Shown here in pieces: positions 7,399-61,512 of a DNA stretch of 64,000 bases. Under the pieces are notes generated by a model that saw only the letters and a program-made list of their open reading frames with translations, searched no databases and was not told where the DNA came from. The stretch lies in the NCBI RefSeq assembly GCF_044324785.1, contig NZ_CP172127.1. The stretch is one strand, 5' to 3'. The translations under genes and the position numbers were made by a program. The stretch comes from Escherichia coli (GTDB lineage Bacteria > Pseudomonadota > Gammaproteobacteria > Enterobacterales > Enterobacteriaceae). How positions within the stretch are numbered: the stretch's first letter is position 1; each line of letters opens with the position of its first letter.

Positions 7399-7428
7399 GC
7401 CGGATGCGACGTTTGCGCCGTATCCGGC
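7399..7428. repeat. REP (repetitive extragenic palindrome) element
   Basis: gccggatgcgacgtttgcgccgtatccggc, the typical GCCGGATG...CATCCGGC-type palindrome, between convergent fucO and xni. Confidence 0.7.
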
Positions 7429-21320: not shown

Positions 21321-21355
21321 TGTAGGCCGGATAAGGCGTTAACGCCGCATCCGGC
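21321..21355. repeat. REP element
   Basis: gtaggccggataaggcgttaacgccgcatccggcat palindromic unit between convergent gudD and barA. Confidence 0.7.
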
Positions 21356-25591: not shown

Positions 25592-27826
25592 ATGGTTGCG
25601 GTAAGAAGTGCACATATCAATAAGGCTGGTGAATTTGATCCGGAAAAATGGATCGCAAGTCTGGGTATTACCAGCCAGAAGTCGTGTGAGTGCTTAGCCG
25701 AAACCTGGGCGTATTGTCTGCAACAGACGCAGGGGCATCCGGATGCCAGTCTGTTATTGTGGCGTGGTGTTGAGATGGTGGAGATCCTCTCGACATTAAG
25801 TATGGACATTGACACGCTGCGGGCGGCGCTGCTGTTCCCTCTGGCGGATGCCAACGTAGTCAGCGAAGATGTGCTGCGTGAGAGCGTCGGTAAGTCGGTC
25901 GTTAACCTTATTCACGGCGTGCGTGATATGGCGGCGATCCGCCAGCTGAAAGCGACGCATACCGATTCTGTTTCCTCCGAACAGGTCGATAACGTTCGCC
26001 GGATGTTATTGGCGATGGTCGATGATTTCCGCTGCGTGGTCATCAAACTGGCAGAGCGTATTGCTCATCTGCGCGAAGTAAAAGACGCGCCGGAAGATGA
26101 ACGCGTACTGGCGGCAAAAGAGTGCACCAATATCTACGCGCCGTTGGCGAACCGTCTTGGGATTGGACAACTGAAATGGGAGCTGGAAGATTACTGCTTC
26201 CGTTATCTCCACCCGACCGAATACAAACGCATCGCAAAACTGCTGCATGAACGCCGTCTCGACCGCGAACACTATATCGAAGAGTTTGTCGGCCATCTGC
26301 GCGCTGAGATGAAAGCTGAAGGCGTTAAAGCTGAAGTGTATGGTCGACCGAAACACATCTACAGCATCTGGCGCAAAATGCAGAAAAAGAACCTCGCCTT
26401 CGATGAGCTGTTTGATGTGCGTGCGGTACGTATTGTCGCCGAGCGTTTACAGGATTGTTATGCCGCACTGGGGATAGTGCACACTCACTATCGCCACCTG
26501 CCGGATGAGTTTGACGATTACGTCGCTAACCCGAAACCAAACGGTTATCAGTCTATTCATACCGTGGTTCTGGGGCCTGGTGGTAAAACTGTTGAAATCC
26601 AGATCCGCACCAAACAGATGCATGAAGATGCAGAGTTGGGTGTTGCTGCGCACTGGAAATATAAAGAGGGCGCGGCTGCTGGCGGCGCACGTTCGGGACA
26701 TGAAGACCGAATTGCCTGGCTGCGTAAACTGATTGCGTGGCAGGAAGAGATGGCTGATTCCGGCGAAATGCTCGACGAAGTACGCAGCCAGGTCTTTGAC
26801 GACCGGGTGTATGTCTTTACGCCGAAAGGTGATGTTGTTGATTTGCCTGCGGGATCAACGCCGCTGGACTTCGCTTACCACATCCACAGTGATGTCGGGC
26901 ACCGCTGCATCGGGGCAAAAATTGGCGGGCGCATTGTGCCGTTCACCTACCAGCTGCAGATGGGCGACCAGATTGAAATTATCACCCAGAAACAGCCGAA
27001 CCCCAGCCGTGACTGGTTAAACCCAAACCTCGGTTACGTCACAACCAGCCGTGGGCGTTCGAAAATTCACGCCTGGTTCCGTAAACAGGACCGTGACAAA
27101 AACATTCTGGCTGGGCGGCAAATCCTTGACGACGAGCTGGAACATCTGGGGATCAGCCTGAAAGAAGCAGAAAAACATCTGCTGCCGCGTTACAACTTCA
27201 ATGATGTCGACGAGTTGCTGGCGGCAATTGGTGGCGGGGATATCCGTCTCAATCAGATGGTGAACTTCCTGCAATCGCAATTTAATAAGCCGAGTGCCGA
27301 AGAGCAGGATGCCGCCGCACTGAAGCAACTTCAGCAAAAAAGCTATACGCCGCAAAACCGCAGTAAAGATAACGGTCGTGTGGTGGTTGAAGGGGTCGGT
27401 AACCTGATGCACCACATCGCGCGCTGCTGCCAGCCGATTCCTGGAGATGAGATTGTCGGCTTCATTACCCAGGGGCGCGGTATTTCAGTACATCGCGCCG
27501 ATTGTGAACAACTGGCGGAACTGCGCTCCCATGCGCCAGAACGTATTGTTGATGCGGTATGGGGCGAGAGCTACTCCGCCGGATATTCGCTGGTGGTCCG
27601 CGTGGTGGCTAATGATCGTAGTGGGTTGTTACGTGATATCACGACCATTCTCGCCAACGAGAAAGTGAACGTACTTGGCGTTGCCAGCCGTAGCGACACC
27701 AAACAGCAACTGGCGACCATCGACATGACCATTGAGATTTACAACCTGCAAGTGCTGGGGCGCGTGCTGGGTAAACTCAACCAGGTGCCGGATGTTATCG
27801 ACGCGCGTCGGTTGCACGGGAGTTAG
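25592..27826 (+). CDS. relA: GTP pyrophosphokinase ((p)ppGpp synthetase I)
   Basis: 744-aa ORF MVAVRSAHINKAGEFDPEKWIASLGITSQKSCE... ending ...VIDARRLHGS. Confidence 0.95.
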   Translation: MVAVRSAHINKAGEFDPEKWIASLGITSQKSCECLAETWAYCLQQTQGHPDASLLLWRGVEMVEILSTLSMDIDTLRAALLFPLADANVVSEDVLRESVGKSVVNLIHGVRDMAAIRQLKATHTDSVSSEQVDNVRRMLLAMVDDFRCVVIKLAERIAHLREVKDAPEDERVLAAKECTNIYAPLANRLGIGQLKWELEDYCFRYLHPTEYKRIAKLLHERRLDREHYIEEFVGHLRAEMKAEGVKAEVYGRPKHIYSIWRKMQKKNLAFDELFDVRAVRIVAERLQDCYAALGIVHTHYRHLPDEFDDYVANPKPNGYQSIHTVVLGPGGKTVEIQIRTKQMHEDAELGVAAHWKYKEGAAAGGARSGHEDRIAWLRKLIAWQEEMADSGEMLDEVRSQVFDDRVYVFTPKGDVVDLPAGSTPLDFAYHIHSDVGHRCIGAKIGGRIVPFTYQLQMGDQIEIITQKQPNPSRDWLNPNLGYVTTSRGRSKIHAWFRKQDRDKNILAGRQILDDELEHLGISLKEAEKHLLPRYNFNDVDELLAAIGGGDIRLNQMVNFLQSQFNKPSAEEQDAAALKQLQQKSYTPQNRSKDNGRVVVEGVGNLMHHIARCCQPIPGDEIVGFITQGRGISVHRADCEQLAELRSHAPERIVDAVWGESYSAGYSLVVRVVANDRSGLLRDITTILANEKVNVLGVASRSDTKQQLATIDMTIEIYNLQVLGRVLGKLNQVPDVIDARRLHGS

Positions 27827-27921
27827 TCTTACATAGCTGGATATGGCGTCAGCCGTATCCAGCGATATCTTTTACTCGAAGGTATTACACCTGACAGACC
27901 CGCAATTTTCAGGACAATTCA

Positions 27922-28713
27922 ATGAATCAAATCGACCGTTTGCTCACTATTATGCAGCGCCTGCGCGACCCGGAAAACGGCTGCCCGTGGGATAAAGAGC
28001 AGACATTTGCCACCATTGCGCCTTACACCCTTGAAGAAACCTACGAGGTGCTTGATGCCATCGCCCGCGAAGACTTTGACGATCTGCGCGGTGAACTGGG
28101 CGATCTGCTATTCCAGGTGGTGTTTTACGCGCAAATGGCTCAGGAAGAAGGGCGCTTTGACTTTAATGATATTTGCGCTGCTATTAGCGATAAATTAGAA
28201 CGTCGCCATCCGCATGTTTTTGCTGACAGTTCTGCCGAAAACAGTAGTGAAGTGCTTGCCCGTTGGGAGCAAATTAAAACCGAAGAGCGCGCGCAGAAAG
28301 CGCAGCATTCGGCGCTGGACGATATTCCTCGTAGTTTACCGGCTTTAATGCGTGCGCAAAAAATCCAGAAACGTTGCGCCAACGTTGGCTTCGACTGGAC
28401 GACGCTTGGTCCGGTAGTCGATAAAGTCTACGAAGAGATCGACGAGGTGATGTACGAGGCGCGGCAGGCTGTTGTCGACCAGGCTAAACTGGAGGAGGAA
28501 ATTGGTGACCTGCTGTTTGCCACGGTCAATCTGGCTCGTCATTTAGGGACAAAAGCGGAAATCGCATTGCAAAAAGCGAACGAAAAATTCGAGCGTCGTT
28601 TTCGCGAAGTGGAGCGTATTGTTGCCGCGCGTGGACTGGAAATGACAGGTGTTGACCTCGAAACAATGGAAGAAGTCTGGCAACAGGTAAAACGGCAGGA
28701 AATTGATCTCTAA
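27922..28713 (+). CDS. mazG: Nucleoside triphosphate pyrophosphohydrolase MazG
   Basis: 263-aa ORF MNQIDRLLTIMQRLRDPENGCPWDKEQTFATIAPYTLEETYEV... Confidence 0.93.
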   Translation: MNQIDRLLTIMQRLRDPENGCPWDKEQTFATIAPYTLEETYEVLDAIAREDFDDLRGELGDLLFQVVFYAQMAQEEGRFDFNDICAAISDKLERRHPHVFADSSAENSSEVLARWEQIKTEERAQKAQHSALDDIPRSLPALMRAQKIQKRCANVGFDWTTLGPVVDKVYEEIDEVMYEARQAVVDQAKLEEEIGDLLFATVNLARHLGTKAEIALQKANEKFERRFREVERIVAARGLEMTGVDLETMEEVWQQVKRQEIDL

Positions 28714-51821: not shown

Positions 51822-54521
51822 ATGCGTAAATATCCTTTAAGTTTACTGAAGGATAAAAATATTGTGACTTTTTTTGATTTCTGGGGAAAAACCCGACGCG
51901 GCGAGAAAGACGGGGGCGACGACTATCACCTTCTTTGCTGGCATTCGCTGGATGTAGCCGCGATGGGCTATTTAATGGTTAAAAGCAATTGCTTCGGGCT
52001 GGCTGACTATTTTCGTCAACTAGGTTTCGCTGATACGGAGCAGGCAGCACAATTTTTCGCCTGGCTATTGTGCTGGCACGATACTGGAAAATTTGCCCGC
52101 TCTTTTCAGCAACTTTACCTGCACCCGCAACTCAAGGTTCCGGAAAGCTCTAGAAAAAATTACGAAAAAATCTCTCATTCAACGCTGGGTTACTGGTTGT
52201 GGCACCATTATTTAAGTGAATGCGAAGAATTGCTTCCTGCATCTTCACTCTCTCCGCGCAAGCTCAAACGGGTAATAGATATGTGGATGCCCATAACTAC
52301 CGGGCATCATGGTCGGCCTCCTGACCGTATGGATGAACTGGACAACTTTCTGCCTGAAGACAAAGCTGCCGCACGAGATTTTCTCCTTGCAATCAAGGCA
52401 CTGTTTCCGCTCATAGAGATCCCCACATTCTGGGATGATGACGAGGGCGTTGAACTCATAAAACAACTTTCCTGGTATATCTCTGCAACCGTCGTACTCG
52501 CAGACTGGACGGGATCGTCAGCGCGATTTTTTCCACGCGTCGCGCAGGCAATGGATATTGAAGATTACTGGCAGAAGGCTTTAGTTCAGGCTCAAAACGC
52601 ATTAACCGTCTTTCCTCCAAAAGCACAAACCGCGCCTTTCACCGGAATTAATACGCTGTTTCCTTTTATTGAGCACTCGACACCGTTACAGCAAAAGGTG
52701 CTGGATCTGGATATCAGCCAGCCTGGGCCACAGTTATTTATTCTGGAGGATGTGACTGGCGCAGGTAAAACAGAAGCGGCGCTTATCCTGGCCCACAGGT
52801 TGATGGCTGCGGGGAAAGCACAGGGTTTGTTTTTTGGCCTGCCAACAATGGCAACGGCCAATGCCATGTACGATCGGCTGGTCAAAACCTGGCTTGCTTT
52901 CTATTCGCCACAATCCCGCCCCAGCCTGGTGCTGGCACACAGTGCCCGCACATTAATGGATCGCTTTAATGAATCACTCTGGTCCGGTGATTTAGTCGGG
53001 TCAGAAGAACCGGATGAACAAACGTTCAGTCAGGGATGTGCGGCCTGGTTTGCCGACAGTAACAAGAAGGCGTTGCTGGCTGAAATTGGCGTCGGCACTT
53101 TGGATCAGGCGATGATGGCGGTGATGCCGTTCAAACATAATAATCTGCGGCTTCTGGGGCTGAGTAATAAAATCCTGCTGGCTGATGAGATCCACGCCTG
53201 TGACGCTTACATGTCATGCATTCTTGAAGGGCTGATCGAGCGGCAGGCGCGTGGCGGAAACAGCGTCATTTTGCTTTCTGCCACGTTATCTCAACAGCAG
53301 CGCGACAAACTCGTTGCTGCCTTTGCGCGTGGTACAGAGGGCCAGCAAGAAGCTCCGTTCCTGGAAAAGGATGATTACCCCTGGCTGACGCACGTTACGA
53401 AATCCGATGTGCATTCACACCGGGTAGCGACGCGCAAAGACGTTGAGCGTAGCGTGAGCGTGGGTTGGCTTCATAGCGAACAAGAATGTATTGCGCGTAT
53501 CGAATCGGCAGTAAGTCAGGGGAAATGCATCGCCTGGATCCGGAATTCTGTCGATGACGCTATTAAGGTTTATCGTCAGTTGCTTGCCCGCGGCGTCATT
53601 CCTGCTTCCAGCCTTTCTCTGTTTCATAGCCGCTTTGCTTTTAGCGATCGCCAGCGAATTGAAACGGAAACGCTGGCACGCTTCGGTAAAAGTTGTAGTT
53701 TACAGAGATCATCGCAAGTCATTGTTTGTACACAAGTAATTGAACAAAGTGTGGATATTGACCTGGACGAAATGATATCCGACCTGGCCCCTGTTGATTT
53801 GCTGATCCAACGGGCGGGGCGATTACAGCGGCATATCCGCGATATTAATGGTCAGTTAAAGCGTGACGGAAAAGACGAGCGTTCCCCTCCTGAATTGCTG
53901 ATTCTGGCCCCCGTCTGGGACGACGCTCCAGGTGACGAATGGTTCGGCAGTGCCATGCGTAACAGTGCATATGTCTATCCCGATCATGGACGAATCTGGC
54001 TGACGCAGCGTGTACTGCGTGAGCAAGGCGCTATTCAAATGCCACACGCAGCCCGCCTTCTTATTGAATCAGTCTACGGTGAGGACGTGGTAATGCCGGA
54101 AGGATTTGCCCGCAGCGAGCAGGAACAAGTGGGCAAATATTACTGCGATCGCGCAATGGCTAAAAAGTTTGTGCTGAACTTCAGGCCCGGCTATGCCGCC
54201 AATATCAACGATTACCTCCCGGAAAAACTGTCGACACGTCTGTCTGAGGAGTCTGTTTCCCTGTGGCTGTCTACCTGTATTGCCGGTGTGGTAAAGCCTT
54301 ATGCCAACGGTGCTCACGCATGGGAAATGAGCGTTGTCAGAGTGCGTCGAAGCTGGTGGAAAAAACATCGCGATGAGTTTTCTTTACTGGAAGGGGATGC
54401 GTTCAGACAGTGGTGCGTTGAACAGCGGCAAGATCCGGAGATGGCAAATGTGATTTTAGTTACCGATGACGAAAGTTGCGGGTATTCGGCTACGGAGGGA
54501 TTGATAGGTAAGGTTGATTGA
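51822..54521 (+). CDS. cas3: Cas3 helicase-nuclease (type I-E)
   Basis: 899-aa ORF with HD nuclease N-terminal region (HSLDVA...), DEAD-like helicase Walker A (EDVTGAGKTEAA) and DExH box (LLADEIHACD); an alternative GTG start at 51864 is possible. Confidence 0.93.
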   Translation: MRKYPLSLLKDKNIVTFFDFWGKTRRGEKDGGDDYHLLCWHSLDVAAMGYLMVKSNCFGLADYFRQLGFADTEQAAQFFAWLLCWHDTGKFARSFQQLYLHPQLKVPESSRKNYEKISHSTLGYWLWHHYLSECEELLPASSLSPRKLKRVIDMWMPITTGHHGRPPDRMDELDNFLPEDKAAARDFLLAIKALFPLIEIPTFWDDDEGVELIKQLSWYISATVVLADWTGSSARFFPRVAQAMDIEDYWQKALVQAQNALTVFPPKAQTAPFTGINTLFPFIEHSTPLQQKVLDLDISQPGPQLFILEDVTGAGKTEAALILAHRLMAAGKAQGLFFGLPTMATANAMYDRLVKTWLAFYSPQSRPSLVLAHSARTLMDRFNESLWSGDLVGSEEPDEQTFSQGCAAWFADSNKKALLAEIGVGTLDQAMMAVMPFKHNNLRLLGLSNKILLADEIHACDAYMSCILEGLIERQARGGNSVILLSATLSQQQRDKLVAAFARGTEGQQEAPFLEKDDYPWLTHVTKSDVHSHRVATRKDVERSVSVGWLHSEQECIARIESAVSQGKCIAWIRNSVDDAIKVYRQLLARGVIPASSLSLFHSRFAFSDRQRIETETLARFGKSCSLQRSSQVIVCTQVIEQSVDIDLDEMISDLAPVDLLIQRAGRLQRHIRDINGQLKRDGKDERSPPELLILAPVWDDAPGDEWFGSAMRNSAYVYPDHGRIWLTQRVLREQGAIQMPHAARLLIESVYGEDVVMPEGFARSEQEQVGKYYCDRAMAKKFVLNFRPGYAANINDYLPEKLSTRLSEESVSLWLSTCIAGVVKPYANGAHAWEMSVVRVRRSWWKKHRDEFSLLEGDAFRQWCVEQRQDPEMANVILVTDDESCGYSATEGLIGKVD

Positions 54522-54547
54522 GATGCCCTGGCGTCGGATGACGCCAG

Positions 54548-54576
54548 GGCTTATCCCCGCTGACGCGGGGAACAGG
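54548..54576 (-). repeat. Solitary CRISPR-repeat-like sequence in inverted orientation downstream of cas3
   Basis: Minus-strand reading cctgttccccgcgtcagcggggataagcc matches the array repeat at 25 of 27 aligned positions; immediately preceded by a second perfect hairpin gccctggcgtc-ggat-gacgccagggc (54525-54550). Confidence 0.8.
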
Positions 54577-54950
54577 AGCATAAAATGATATACGTGTATC
54601 ACTAACTTGGTTAATCCCTTAGACAGGGAACTGAAGACGTTTATATCAAAAATAAGGGTTATTCGAAATAAAGAAAATCTCTAAGAGTTATTGATATACG
54701 TAACAATGTCCGGAAGCAGAGTTGAAAAACCTTTTGATAAAGAATACTTTGGTTTTTATTAAGTGATAGAGCCTGAGCGAAAAGGATTATAGAAAATTAT
54801 CTTTATATATTCGTGTGATTTATTGATTATTTAATAATAATCTAATTTTCAATATATTCATTTAATATGATGTAATCTCTCTTTTCGATTGATTCTTGAA
54901 TATGGTGATGGACAACCTACCATGGATGGTCTTATTTGCGAGGAAAGCGT
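54577..54950 (+). promoter_or_regulatory. cas3-cse1 intergenic region, expected Cascade operon promoter (Pcas; H-NS/LeuO-controlled in K-12)
   Basis: About 370 bp of strongly AT-rich non-coding DNA upstream of cse1 with a good RBS (gagga) before the ATG at 54951; promoter elements not mapped. Confidence 0.5.
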
Positions 54951-56509
54951 ATGGAATTTTTTTCAATTATAACAACCCCGTGGTTGCCCGTTCGTTATAA
55001 AGACGGAACGACAGGCAAACTGGCGCCAGTCGATCTGGCGGATGAAAATGTTGTCGATATCGCTGCGCCGCGGGCAGATCTCCAGGGGGCGGCCTGGCAG
55101 TTTTTGCTGGGGCTACTACAAACCAGCTTCGCGCCAAAAGATCATCGTCGTTGGGATGATATCTGGGAAGACGGACTGGAAGCTGAAAAGCTACGGGAAG
55201 CATTGCTATCTTTAGAACATGCTTTCCAGTTTGGCCCAGATTCCCCTTCATTTATGCAGGATTTCGAGGCGCTCACGGGAGATAAAGTTCAGATCGCTTC
55301 GCTACTGCCTGAGATTCCCGGCGCTCAAACAACGAAGTTTAATAAAGACCACTTTATTAAACGTGGCGTGACTGAACACGTATGCCCTCATTGTTCTGCG
55401 TTAGCTCTGTTCTCCCTACAGTTAAATGCACCGTCAGGCGGCAAAGGCTATCGCACCGGTTTACGCGGCGGTGGGCCGATGACCACTCTGATTGAATTAC
55501 AGGAATATCAGGGCAATCAACAAACGCCATTGTGGCGCAAACTGTGGCTCAACGTGATGCCGCAGGATGAAGCCGACTTACCGCTACCCAAAAAATTTGA
55601 CGATCTGGTTTTCCCCTGGCTTGGCCCGACGCGTACCAGCGAACTGACCGGTGCGGTGGTAACCGATGATCAGGTTAATAAACTCCAGGCGTACTGGGGA
55701 ATGCCACGGCGTATTCGTATTGATTTTAATACCACGACAGTCGGCAACTGCGATATTTGCGGTGAGCAGAGCGACGCGCTGCTAAGCCTGATGACGACCA
55801 AAAATTACGGCGCTAACTATGCCATGTGGCTGCATCCCTTAACGCCTTACCGTGTACCCCTTAAAGAGGGTGGCGAGTTTTACTCGGTCAAACCACAACC
55901 GGGCGGTTTAATCTGGCGCGACTGGTTAGGCCTTATCGAAACGGGTAAGTCAGAAAACAATACGGAACTTCCTGCACTGGTGGTGAAACTCTTTAATGCC
56001 AGCAGTCTGAAACAGGCAAAAGTGGGCCTGTGGGGATTTGGTTATGATTTTGACAACATGAAAGCGCGCTGTTGGTACGAACACCATTTCCCGCTACTGC
56101 TCAATAAAAAAGAAGGCCAGATACCGAAGCTGCGGCTGGCTGCGCAAACGGCTTCACGGATTCTGAGTCTGTTACGGAGTGCATTGAAAGAAGCATGGTT
56201 CTCCGATCCAAAAGGTGCAAGGGGTGATTTCAGTTTTGTGGATATCGACTTCTGGAACAAAACTCAGCATCGCTTCCTGAGGTTAGTGCGCCAAATTGAA
56301 GAAGGTCAGGATGCGGATGAATTACTCGGCAAATGGCAAAAGGAAATTTGGTTATTCGCGCGTCAGGATTTTGACGAGCGTGTATTCACTAATCCTTATG
56401 AGCCCGTTGATTTGAAACGCGTCATGACCGCGCGCAAGAAATATTTTACAACATCGGCGGAGAAGCAAAGTGCTAAAGCCGCCAGGGAGAAAAAGCAGGA
56501 GGCTGCTGA

Positions 56510-56513
<4 letters not shown>
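54951..56513 (+). CDS. casA: Cse1 / CasA (Cas8e), Cascade large subunit
   Basis: ORF 54936-56513; start chosen at MEFFSIITTPWLPVRYKDG... after RBS; first gene after cas3, about 520 aa; highly divergent from the K-12 CasA sequence as I recall it. Confidence 0.85.
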
Positions 56514-58116
<1,603 letters not shown>

Positions 58117-58126
58117 GGGGCGGCTA

Positions 58127-58873
58127 ATGAGCCAATATTTGATTTTTCAGCTTCATGGGCCAATGGCATCCTGGGGCGTCGATGCCCCCGGCGAAGTGCG
58201 TCATACCCATGAACTGCCTTCGCGCTCAGCATTGCTGGGGCTGCTGGCTGCCGGGGTAGGGATTCGGCGTGATGATACCGAACGATTAAACGCGTTTAAC
58301 CGCCACTATTCACTGGTGGTTTGCGCCAGCCGTAACCCGCGCTGGGCACGGGATTATCACACGGTCCAGATGCCAAAAGAGGTGCGTAAAGCGCGTTATT
58401 TCAGCCGTCGCGAAGAGTTGAGCGCCCCTGATCTTCTGAGCGCGATTATCTCCCGGCGCGACTACTACACCGATGCCTGGTGGATGGTGGCGGTGGCAAC
58501 AACCCCCGATGCGCCTTACAGCCTTGAACAGTTGCAGGACGGTTTACGTCATCCGGTTTTTCCGCTTTATCTGGGGCGAAAAAGTCATCCGCTGGCGTTA
58601 CCACTTGCGCCGTTACTGCTCGAAGGCAACGCGTCTGATGTCTTACGTAACGCATACCAACAGTATCAGGATAGTTTCCGCGAACTGAAAGTCTCACTCC
58701 CGAAACTTCAGGATGAATGCTGGTGGGAAGGGGAACACGACGGCCTGGTCGCGAGCAAAATATTACGTCGCCGGGATGTTCCTTTAAATCGTCAGCAGTG
58801 GCTGTTTGGGGAACGCACCATCAATCAGGGGCCGTGGCTCAGCAAGGAGGAACCATGTACCTCTCAAGAATAA
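58127..58873 (+). CDS. casD: Cas5e / CasD
   Basis: 248-aa ORF MSQYLIFQLHGPMASWGVDAPGEVRHT...SRSALLGLLAAGVGIRRDDT..., alignable to K-12 CasD (MRSYLILRLAGPMQAWGQPT...). Confidence 0.88.
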   Translation: MSQYLIFQLHGPMASWGVDAPGEVRHTHELPSRSALLGLLAAGVGIRRDDTERLNAFNRHYSLVVCASRNPRWARDYHTVQMPKEVRKARYFSRREELSAPDLLSAIISRRDYYTDAWWMVAVATTPDAPYSLEQLQDGLRHPVFPLYLGRKSHPLALPLAPLLLEGNASDVLRNAYQQYQDSFRELKVSLPKLQDECWWEGEHDGLVASKILRRRDVPLNRQQWLFGERTINQGPWLSKEEPCTSQE

Positions 58874-59501
58874 CCTTACATACCGGCCAGCTTTCGCCTG
58901 CGCAGTTGCTGCATTTGGTGGATCGCGGTGAATATGTAATGCATCAGTGGCTGTGGGATCTTTTTCCTGGCGGCAAAGAAAGGCAATTTCTTTATCGTCG
59001 GGAAGAACTCCAGGGGGCGTTTCGCTTTTTTGTCCTGTCGCAGGAACGCCCGGCGGAAAGTGATATTTTCACCATCGAATGCCGACCATTTGCGCCAGAG
59101 TTGCGTACCGGACAATCCCTTTGTTTCAACCTCCGGGCGAATCCAACAATTTGTAAAGCGGGCAAACGCCACGACTTGCTGATGGAGGCGAAACGGCAGG
59201 TGAGGGGGCAGGTGGAAGGAAGTGATGTCTGGTTGCATCAACAACAGGCTGCGCTGGACTGGCTGGCAGCGCAGGGGGAGAGAAGCGGTTTTACACTGCT
59301 GGATACTTCGGTTGATGCCTACCGACAACAGCAACTGCGGCGGGAAAACTCCCGGCAACTGATCCAGTTCAGTAGCGTGGATTATACGGGGATGCTTACG
59401 GTCACCGATCCTGGGTTATTTCTGCAACGTCTCAGTCAGGGGTATGGCAAAAGCCGGGCGTTCGGTTGTGGTCTGATGCTGATCAAACCCGGAGCAGAGG
59501 C

Positions 59502-59505
<4 letters not shown>
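58855..59505 (+). CDS. casE: Cas6e / CasE crRNA endoribonuclease
   Basis: Start at ATG 58855 after RBS aaggagg; MYLSRITLHTGQLSPAQLLHLVD... (K-12 CasE begins MYLSKVII...); overlaps the cas5 3' end by 19 nt; 216 aa. Confidence 0.88.
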
Positions 59506-60715
<1,210 letters not shown>

Positions 60716-60811
60716 GTTATCCGTTCTTTAAAAATAAGGAAATGTTTTAATTTAGTTGGTAGATTGTTGATGCGGAATAAATTTGTTTAAAAACAGTTAT
60801 GTATGCTTAGT
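60716..60811 (+). promoter_or_regulatory. CRISPR leader (array at 60812-61512)
   Basis: AT-rich 96 bp between the cas2 stop and the first repeat (…ggaaatgttttaatttagttggtagattgttgatgcggaataaatttgtttaaaaacagttatgtatgcttagt). Confidence 0.75.
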
Positions 60812-61512
60812 GTGTTCCCCGCGCCAGCGGGGATAAACCGTTTCACCGTCGTTCCGTCCGCGCGCTTAGCCTGTGTTCCCCGCGCCAGCGGGGATAAACC
60901 GATTGCGCGGACCGGGCCAGCGCGTCGATTTCTGTGTTCCCCGCGCCAGCGGGGATAAACCGGTGACGACGATCCCAACGCTGCAAAAGGTTAAGTGTTC
61001 CCCGCGCCAGCGGGGATAAACCGCCGTGCTCAATTCAACACCCGACACTGCGCGAGTGTTCCCCGCGCCAGCGGGGATAAACCGTTGTAATTTTGTTCAG
61101 TCTGGCCCATAGCGCGCGTGTTCCCCGCGCCAGCGGGGATAAACCGTTTTGTGAGTATCTTATTTGTCTGGCTCGGTGGTGTTCCCCGCGCCAGCGGGGA
61201 TAAACCGATCTGTTTGCAGATCAACAGGCCCGTAAGGACGTGTTCCCCGCGCCAGCGGGGATAAACCGATAACGCCCGCGCGATCTGGATTATCAGTTAC
61301 GTGTTCCCCGCGCCAGCGGGGATAAACCGCCCGACGGCAGTCGGAGATTAACTATATATGTGTGTTCCCCGCGCCAGCGGGGATAAACCGGGTAAAAACA
61401 CGGTCTGAACCGACATTCATGTGTGTTCCCCGCGTCAGCGGGGATAAACCGGACGCACTGGATGCGATGATGGATATCACTTAGAATTCCCCGCCCCTGC
61501 GGTAGAACTCGC
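60812..61512 (+). CRISPR. Type I-E CRISPR array, 12 repeats (11 canonical 29-bp GTGTTCCCCGCGCCAGCGGGGATAAACCG plus 1 degenerate terminal), 11 spacers of 32-33 bp
   Basis: Repeats start at 60812, 60873, 60934, 60995, 61056, 61118, 61179, 61240, 61301, 61362, 61423 (gcgTcagc variant) and degenerate 61484 (gaattccccgcccctgcggtagaactcgc). Confidence 0.97.

Follow-up and report, generated by a model that had tools for sequence, protein, structure and literature searches.

Results

Gene content of the relA-mazG interval

The window, that is, the whole 64-kb stretch of Escherichia coli DNA that was analysed, carries relA and mazG on the plus strand, with rlmD upstream of relA and with pyrG and eno downstream of mazG. 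The first gene of the pair, located at 25592-27826, encodes a GTP diphosphokinase of 744 amino acids that matches the RelA equivalog NF008124 from end to end (1678 bits). Its stop codon is the TAG at 27824-27826, and the relA label is also given in the annotation of matching E. coli genomes. The second gene, located at 27922-28713, encodes a nucleoside triphosphate pyrophosphohydrolase of 263 amino acids, which is recognized as MazG by TIGR00444 (418 bits) and NF007113 (370 bits). The ORF coordinates and family matches bear out the gap of 95 bp, between a relA end at 27826 and a mazG start at 27922, that had been described in an earlier reading of the letters of this DNA (hereafter the sequence-only reading).

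This intergenic spacer (27827-27921, plus strand) contains neither mazE nor mazF and is identical in E. coli N3. The earlier statement that it holds no ORF is essentially right, as the sole mechanical ORF starting inside it (27843-27995, 50 amino acids) runs into mazG out of frame. A mazEF (chpA) module consists of an ORF for MazE, an AbrB/SpoVT-type antitoxin, followed by an ORF for MazF, a PemK/MazF endoribonuclease, and 95 bp are too small to accommodate such a pair. When K-12 MazE and MazF were used as tblastn queries (E ≤ 1e-3), zero matches were obtained across the whole 64-kb window; no mazEF coding sequence was turned up in the interval, in agreement with what had been claimed.

Alignment to the K-12-type locus

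The order relA, mazE, mazF, mazG, which had been given for K-12, was found in the annotation of the K-12-like strain JB41, where the distance from the relA stop to the mazG start is 731 bp. The locus of this strain was taken as the K-12 side of the junction comparison. Identity between the two loci extends through the relA stop codon, breaks, and restarts at about position 27888 (CACCTGACAGACCCGCAATTTTCAGGACAATTCAATG), approximately 34 bp before mazG. K-12 and the window thus agree in their flanking genes, around the relA stop and over the 34 bp before mazG. In contrast, the sequence in between differs: K-12 has about 700 bp, comprising PmazE with its operator palindrome, mazE and mazF, whereas the window has an allele-specific segment of 61 bp with a hairpin (27827-27887, plus strand). 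The K-12-type right junction reads TCACAGGTTTC. The shared segment just upstream of mazG (27888-27921, plus strand) includes a promoter-like CTGACA-16-GACAAT (27891-27918) and a CAGGA ribosome-binding region.

The sequence-only reading had proposed such an alignment as a way of defining the breakpoints. The left breakpoint is exact and lies at the relA stop. The right breakpoint is fuzzy: since weak similarity continues to the left of 27888 over a further 12-22 bp (13 of 22 bases), the edge is placed between about 27866 and 27888, and there is no clean deletion breakpoint. Between the relA stop and this edge, the JB41 alignment gave no homology to cassette remnants, namely the PmazE operator palindrome and the mazF 3' flank, and the 61-bp segment is unrelated to the sequence of the mazEF cassette. 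Judged by this alignment, the 61-bp and mazEF segments are alternative alleles rather than a sequence and its deletion derivative. The absence of scars that had been reported at the junction was also confirmed. No FRT-like site with up to three mismatches was found in the window, and no flanking repeats (target-site duplications) were found at the junction, the only repeats being trivial short ones within relA and mazG.

The flanks of the junction are only about 97-98% identical to K-12. E. coli N3 shares the final 1 kb of relA at 100% identity but mazG at just 98.5% (window 26827-28713). The nine bases preceding the mazG ATG correspond to the K-12 version (ACAATTCA) and not to that of B2-type strains with the same allele (ACATTCTA). 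Together, the identity at the relA 3' end, the divergence of mazG and the bases next to the ATG suggest, at the sequence level, a recombination mosaic around the junction.

Structure of the spacer hairpin

A REP-derived hairpin (27836-27863, plus strand), which begins 9 nt past the relA stop codon, is predicted to have a 12-bp stem (27836-27847 paired with 27852-27863, including one G.U pair) and a GUCA loop. The palindrome gctggata (27836-27843) and tatccagc (27856-27863), which had been described as an 8-bp stem with 12 intervening nucleotides, is indeed present but constitutes the outer part of this 12-bp stem with a 4-nt loop. When one mismatch is allowed, the stem reaches 15 bp. For the isolated hairpin the folding energy is -23.3 kcal/mol (z = -6.4), a value that no sequence among 200 shuffles reached, so that its stability is far beyond chance. 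The K-12 relA-mazE spacer, in contrast, shows no comparable RNA structure (z = -0.4).

A similar hairpin (-22 kcal/mol, z = -4.7) is found in SCPM-O-B-8794, a lineage with about 92% identity in relA and mazG. All five stem substitutions in this lineage keep the pairing, one of them being a compensatory change from T-A to C-G. Pairing is 100% kept across the three distinct sequences that enter the covariation analysis, a set with which the shuffle control was not beaten (141/500). A scan of 27500-28200 against Rfam at E ≤ 10 returned no family. In strain A34 (from a genet), there is a 2-bp deletion in the 5' arm of the hairpin. The stem is followed by the tail GATATCTTTT (27864-27873, plus strand), a weak U-tract picked up as part of a terminator-like scan match, which in the minimum-free-energy structure also supplies the 5' side of another, weaker hairpin (27864-27886).

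Relationship of the hairpin to REP elements

Canonical REP palindromes (GTAGGCCGGATAAGGCG...CGCCATCCGGC) begin a few bases past the relA stop in the relA-mazG spacers of Citrobacter, Salmonella arizonae and Klebsiella. The hairpin of the window aligns with the REP found at the same position in Citrobacter gillenii, as well as with a canonical REP at 21322-21355 of the window. Its core is at most two mismatches away from the 13-mer GCCGGATAAGGCG, a pattern with 8 occurrences in the window where 1.8 would be expected. The hairpin departs from the REP consensus (5' GTAG, GCCGGAT core) by having ATAG for GTAG and CTGGAT for CCGGAT; the Escherichia lineage with about 92% identity keeps both GTAG and CCGGAT.

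Like the REP/BIME elements of Enterobacteriaceae, the hairpin is extragenic, located just past a stop codon, and formed by an imperfect palindrome of about 30 nt. It matches the definition of a REP as an extragenic imperfect palindrome of about 30-40 nt with a stable stem-loop, and it is positionally homologous to the REPs of related species. Unlike canonical REP/BIME elements, which are present in many copies per genome, it is decayed and single-copy, as the exact 61-bp segment occurs once per genome. We therefore read the hairpin as a decayed, positionally homologous, single-copy REP, although an imperfect one, which would have been the ancestral occupant of the spacer and would have been replaced when mazEF arrived. 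REP mobilisation probably no longer acts on it. Canonical or near-canonical REP elements were also observed in other intergenic spacers of the window, at 7416, 17024, 21322-21355, 43920 and 50423.

Frequency of the two alleles among E. coli genomes

The 61-bp allele was found at ≥95% identity in 1000 of 5426 complete E. coli genomes (about 18%), and 985 of these matches are at least 99% identical. The segment is single-copy in each genome and chromosomal in every case. According to their listed sources, which include humans, animals and wastewater, the carriers are mostly natural isolates. Among them are CFT073, Nissle 1917 (EcN), ATCC 25922 and O25b:H4-ST131, which are members of phylogroup B2. 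In the annotation of CFT073, the gene order is relA-mazG-pyrG, with nothing between relA and mazG.

The K-12 mazEF cassette was found in 4419 of the 5426 genomes. The two counts add up to 5419, leaving 7 genomes over, and are consistent with two mutually exclusive alleles at relA-mazG, with disjointness deduced from the summed counts alone. By the same counts, seven of the 5426 complete genomes seem to lack both the 61-bp allele and any detectable mazEF cassette. In strain SW07163, mazF is split or partial (in two places), possibly because of an IS insertion.

Along 15 kb, E. coli N3 is the closest complete genome to the window (99.2% identity), and many other genomes, which match across the junction as one colinear piece of equal length, reach 98.9%. 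With these identities the window is E. coli proper, and an origin in a different species was rejected. The arrangement of the window is an ordinary, common form and one of the two common alleles in E. coli.

The relA-mazG interval in other Enterobacterales

A scan seeded with MazG, with one genome per species, yielded 80 Enterobacterales loci. The 3' end of relA was located upstream of mazG in 78 of them by tblastn, and no MazE or MazF homologue was detected by tblastn in any of the 80. In most of these other Enterobacterales, the relA-mazG gap measures about 45-140 bp; a few gaps reach 230-420 bp, and that of Superficieibacter about 950 bp. The same 95-bp spacer as in the window is present in two divergent Escherichia lineages labelled E. 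coli, SCPM-O-B-8794 and E69 (about 92% and about 95-96% identical in relA and mazG, respectively).

The gaps of Superficieibacter (loci L018, 545-1500, and L019; about 950 bp) and Pectobacterium (L063-L065; about 415 bp) are unusually long. Neither MazE nor MazF was found in them, and no ORF was convincing apart from one encoding a hydrophobic sequence of 112 amino acids (L018, 1066-1404); the gaps may result from the insertion of other material at the same hotspot.

A different situation was observed in the type strain of E. albertii, NBRC 107761, whose relA-mazG spacer is 261 bp long (locus L006, 1240-1500). The first 35 bp or so of this spacer are homologous to the promoter region of K-12 mazEF, its last part is the 3' end of mazF with the flank (AGGAATTACAACTCA joined to CTTCTGTTCTGGTCACAGG), and REP/BIME units separate the two remnants. 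By its sequence, it is a degraded mazEF cassette and has the appearance of a genuine cassette loss; nothing alike is present in the window.

CRISPR-Cas locus in the window

A type I-E CRISPR-Cas locus is located downstream of cysJIH (51822-61268) and comprises cas3, cse1, cse2, cas7, cas5e and cas1e, together with two short CRISPR arrays (60811-60962 and 61050-61268) with a 61-bp period. The cas7/casC gene (57061-58116) carries a single in-frame stop at 57307-57309, because of which Cascade is probably defective. Cas3 scored 420 bits, below the cut-off of 569 bits for the K-12-type equivalog, and is thus not a K-12-type equivalog.

Discussion

Direction of change at the relA-mazG locus

Given that relA and mazG are adjacent without mazEF in other Enterobacterales and in divergent Escherichia, the mazEF-free form is ancestral and mazEF was inserted in part of E. 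coli. On this comparative evidence, K-12 carries the derived state. The window very probably corresponds to the ancestral uninterrupted relA-mazG arrangement, which never held mazEF, and the K-12-type insertion of about 700 bp would have replaced a decayed-REP spacer with a hairpin at the relA 3' end. By describing mazEF as absent with K-12 as the reference, the sequence-only reading took the change in the wrong direction, since the mazEF-free state is common to other Enterobacterales.

The main alternative is a secondary natural loss, in which an ancestor had relA-mazEF-mazG as in K-12 and the cassette was deleted later. Cassette loss does occur at this site, as indicated by the E. albertii type strain, in which remnants of the promoter and of the mazF 3' flank are retained with REP/BIME elements between them. 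The window, however, is devoid of such remnants, its 61 bp being unrelated to the cassette ends and aligning instead with the REPs of Citrobacter spacers. Moreover, the same spacer is found in the Escherichia lineages that are about 92% and 96% identical, and a deletion would not recreate a sequence of the outgroup type unless the allele had been re-imported by recombination. We consider this scenario improbable.

The probability of an engineered mazEF deletion in a laboratory strain, whether by lambda-Red/FLP or by a scarless knock-out, is close to nil. Although mazEF deletion mutants are in wide laboratory use, the 61 bp are not present in K-12 and therefore cannot derive from the deletion of K-12 sequence, the flanks have only the limited identity to K-12 given above, and no FRT-like site is present. 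The junction also matches 1000 genomes, mostly natural isolates from many hosts, and these observations refute an engineered origin in practice. The earlier suggestion of a natural allele thus holds, with the same 61 bp in genomes from varied hosts and with CFT073 having nothing between relA and mazG. An assembly artefact, in which the mazEF segment was collapsed or dropped, is just as negligible, since the same contiguous arrangement is found in 1000 complete genomes and a unique non-K-12 sequence fills the gap.

An ancestral mazEF-free arrangement is in line with the literature. Fraikin, Goormaghtigh and Van Melderen (J Bacteriol 2020, PMC7167474) state that many strains, for instance UTI89, do not have these systems, that relA and mazG make up a bicistronic, undisturbed operon in such strains, and that the toxin-antitoxin pair was inserted into the intercistronic region. 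The mazEF-free loci of UTI89 and CFT073 (PMC7167474) have the same gene order as the window, the 61-bp spacer is 100% identical in CFT073, and the conclusion is the same. No substantive difference separates these mazEF-free strains from the window, the flanks being about 1-2.5% diverged. The arrangement and the direction of change are therefore already published (PMC7167474), and there is nothing new in the allele itself. A parallel case is provided by dinB-yafP and dinB-yafNO-yafP, in which a type II toxin-antitoxin pair lies between two cistrons in some E. coli only (PMC7167474), at a locus different from relA-mazG.

The degraded cassette of E. albertii implies that mazEF, whether inherited or transferred, has not been confined to E. 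coli within the genus Escherichia. The mazEF insertion may thus predate E. coli as a species, so that a simple scenario with B2 splitting off before the insertion becomes more complicated.

Possible function of the spacer hairpin

A loose terminator scan matched the hairpin with 12 pairs, 7 of them G-C, a loop of 4 nt and the tail given above, with 1 site found against 0.8 expected. The U-run is short and displaced, with four U starting 7 nt after the 12-bp stem. As the U-tract is weak, efficient intrinsic termination is doubtful and would be partial at most. The promoter-like CTGACA-16-GACAAT is a consensus match only and is no more frequent than expected by chance (1 found against 0.7 expected).

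REPs protect upstream mRNA against 3' exonucleases. In addition, REPs located at most 15 nt from the stop codon stall terminating ribosomes and lower translation, according to the summary of Liang et al. 2015 given in PMC12306157. The hairpin would define or protect the 3' end of the relA mRNA, as a barrier to 3' exonucleases and a partial terminator, and it probably marks or stabilises this end. Its position within 15 nt of the stop codon suggests that it could also dampen RelA translation. The expression of mazG would then depend on read-through or on the weak promoter-like sequence of the 34-bp segment that K-12 also has.

A more far-reaching proposal is that the decayed REP hairpin is a working cis-regulator, through stop-codon stalling, 3'-end protection or partial termination, and that the mazEF polymorphism is older than the species. 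We regard this combined proposal as rather unlikely. If the hairpin did act in this way, mazEF-free (B2-type) and mazEF-bearing E. coli would have systematically different dosages of RelA and MazG, whatever the effect of MazF itself.

Significance

The locus matters little beyond bookkeeping, in that it confirms K-12 as the derived state. A minor addition concerns the spacer element that gave way to mazEF: it appears to be a REP-derived hairpin, which lies near enough to the relA stop that it may affect RelA expression. A chromosomal mazEF is lacking at relA-mazG in about 18% of the complete E. coli genomes, among them those of major extraintestinal pathogens and of the probiotic Nissle 1917. 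This frequency bears on claims that present MazEF as a relA-linked module with a general role in stress or cell death.
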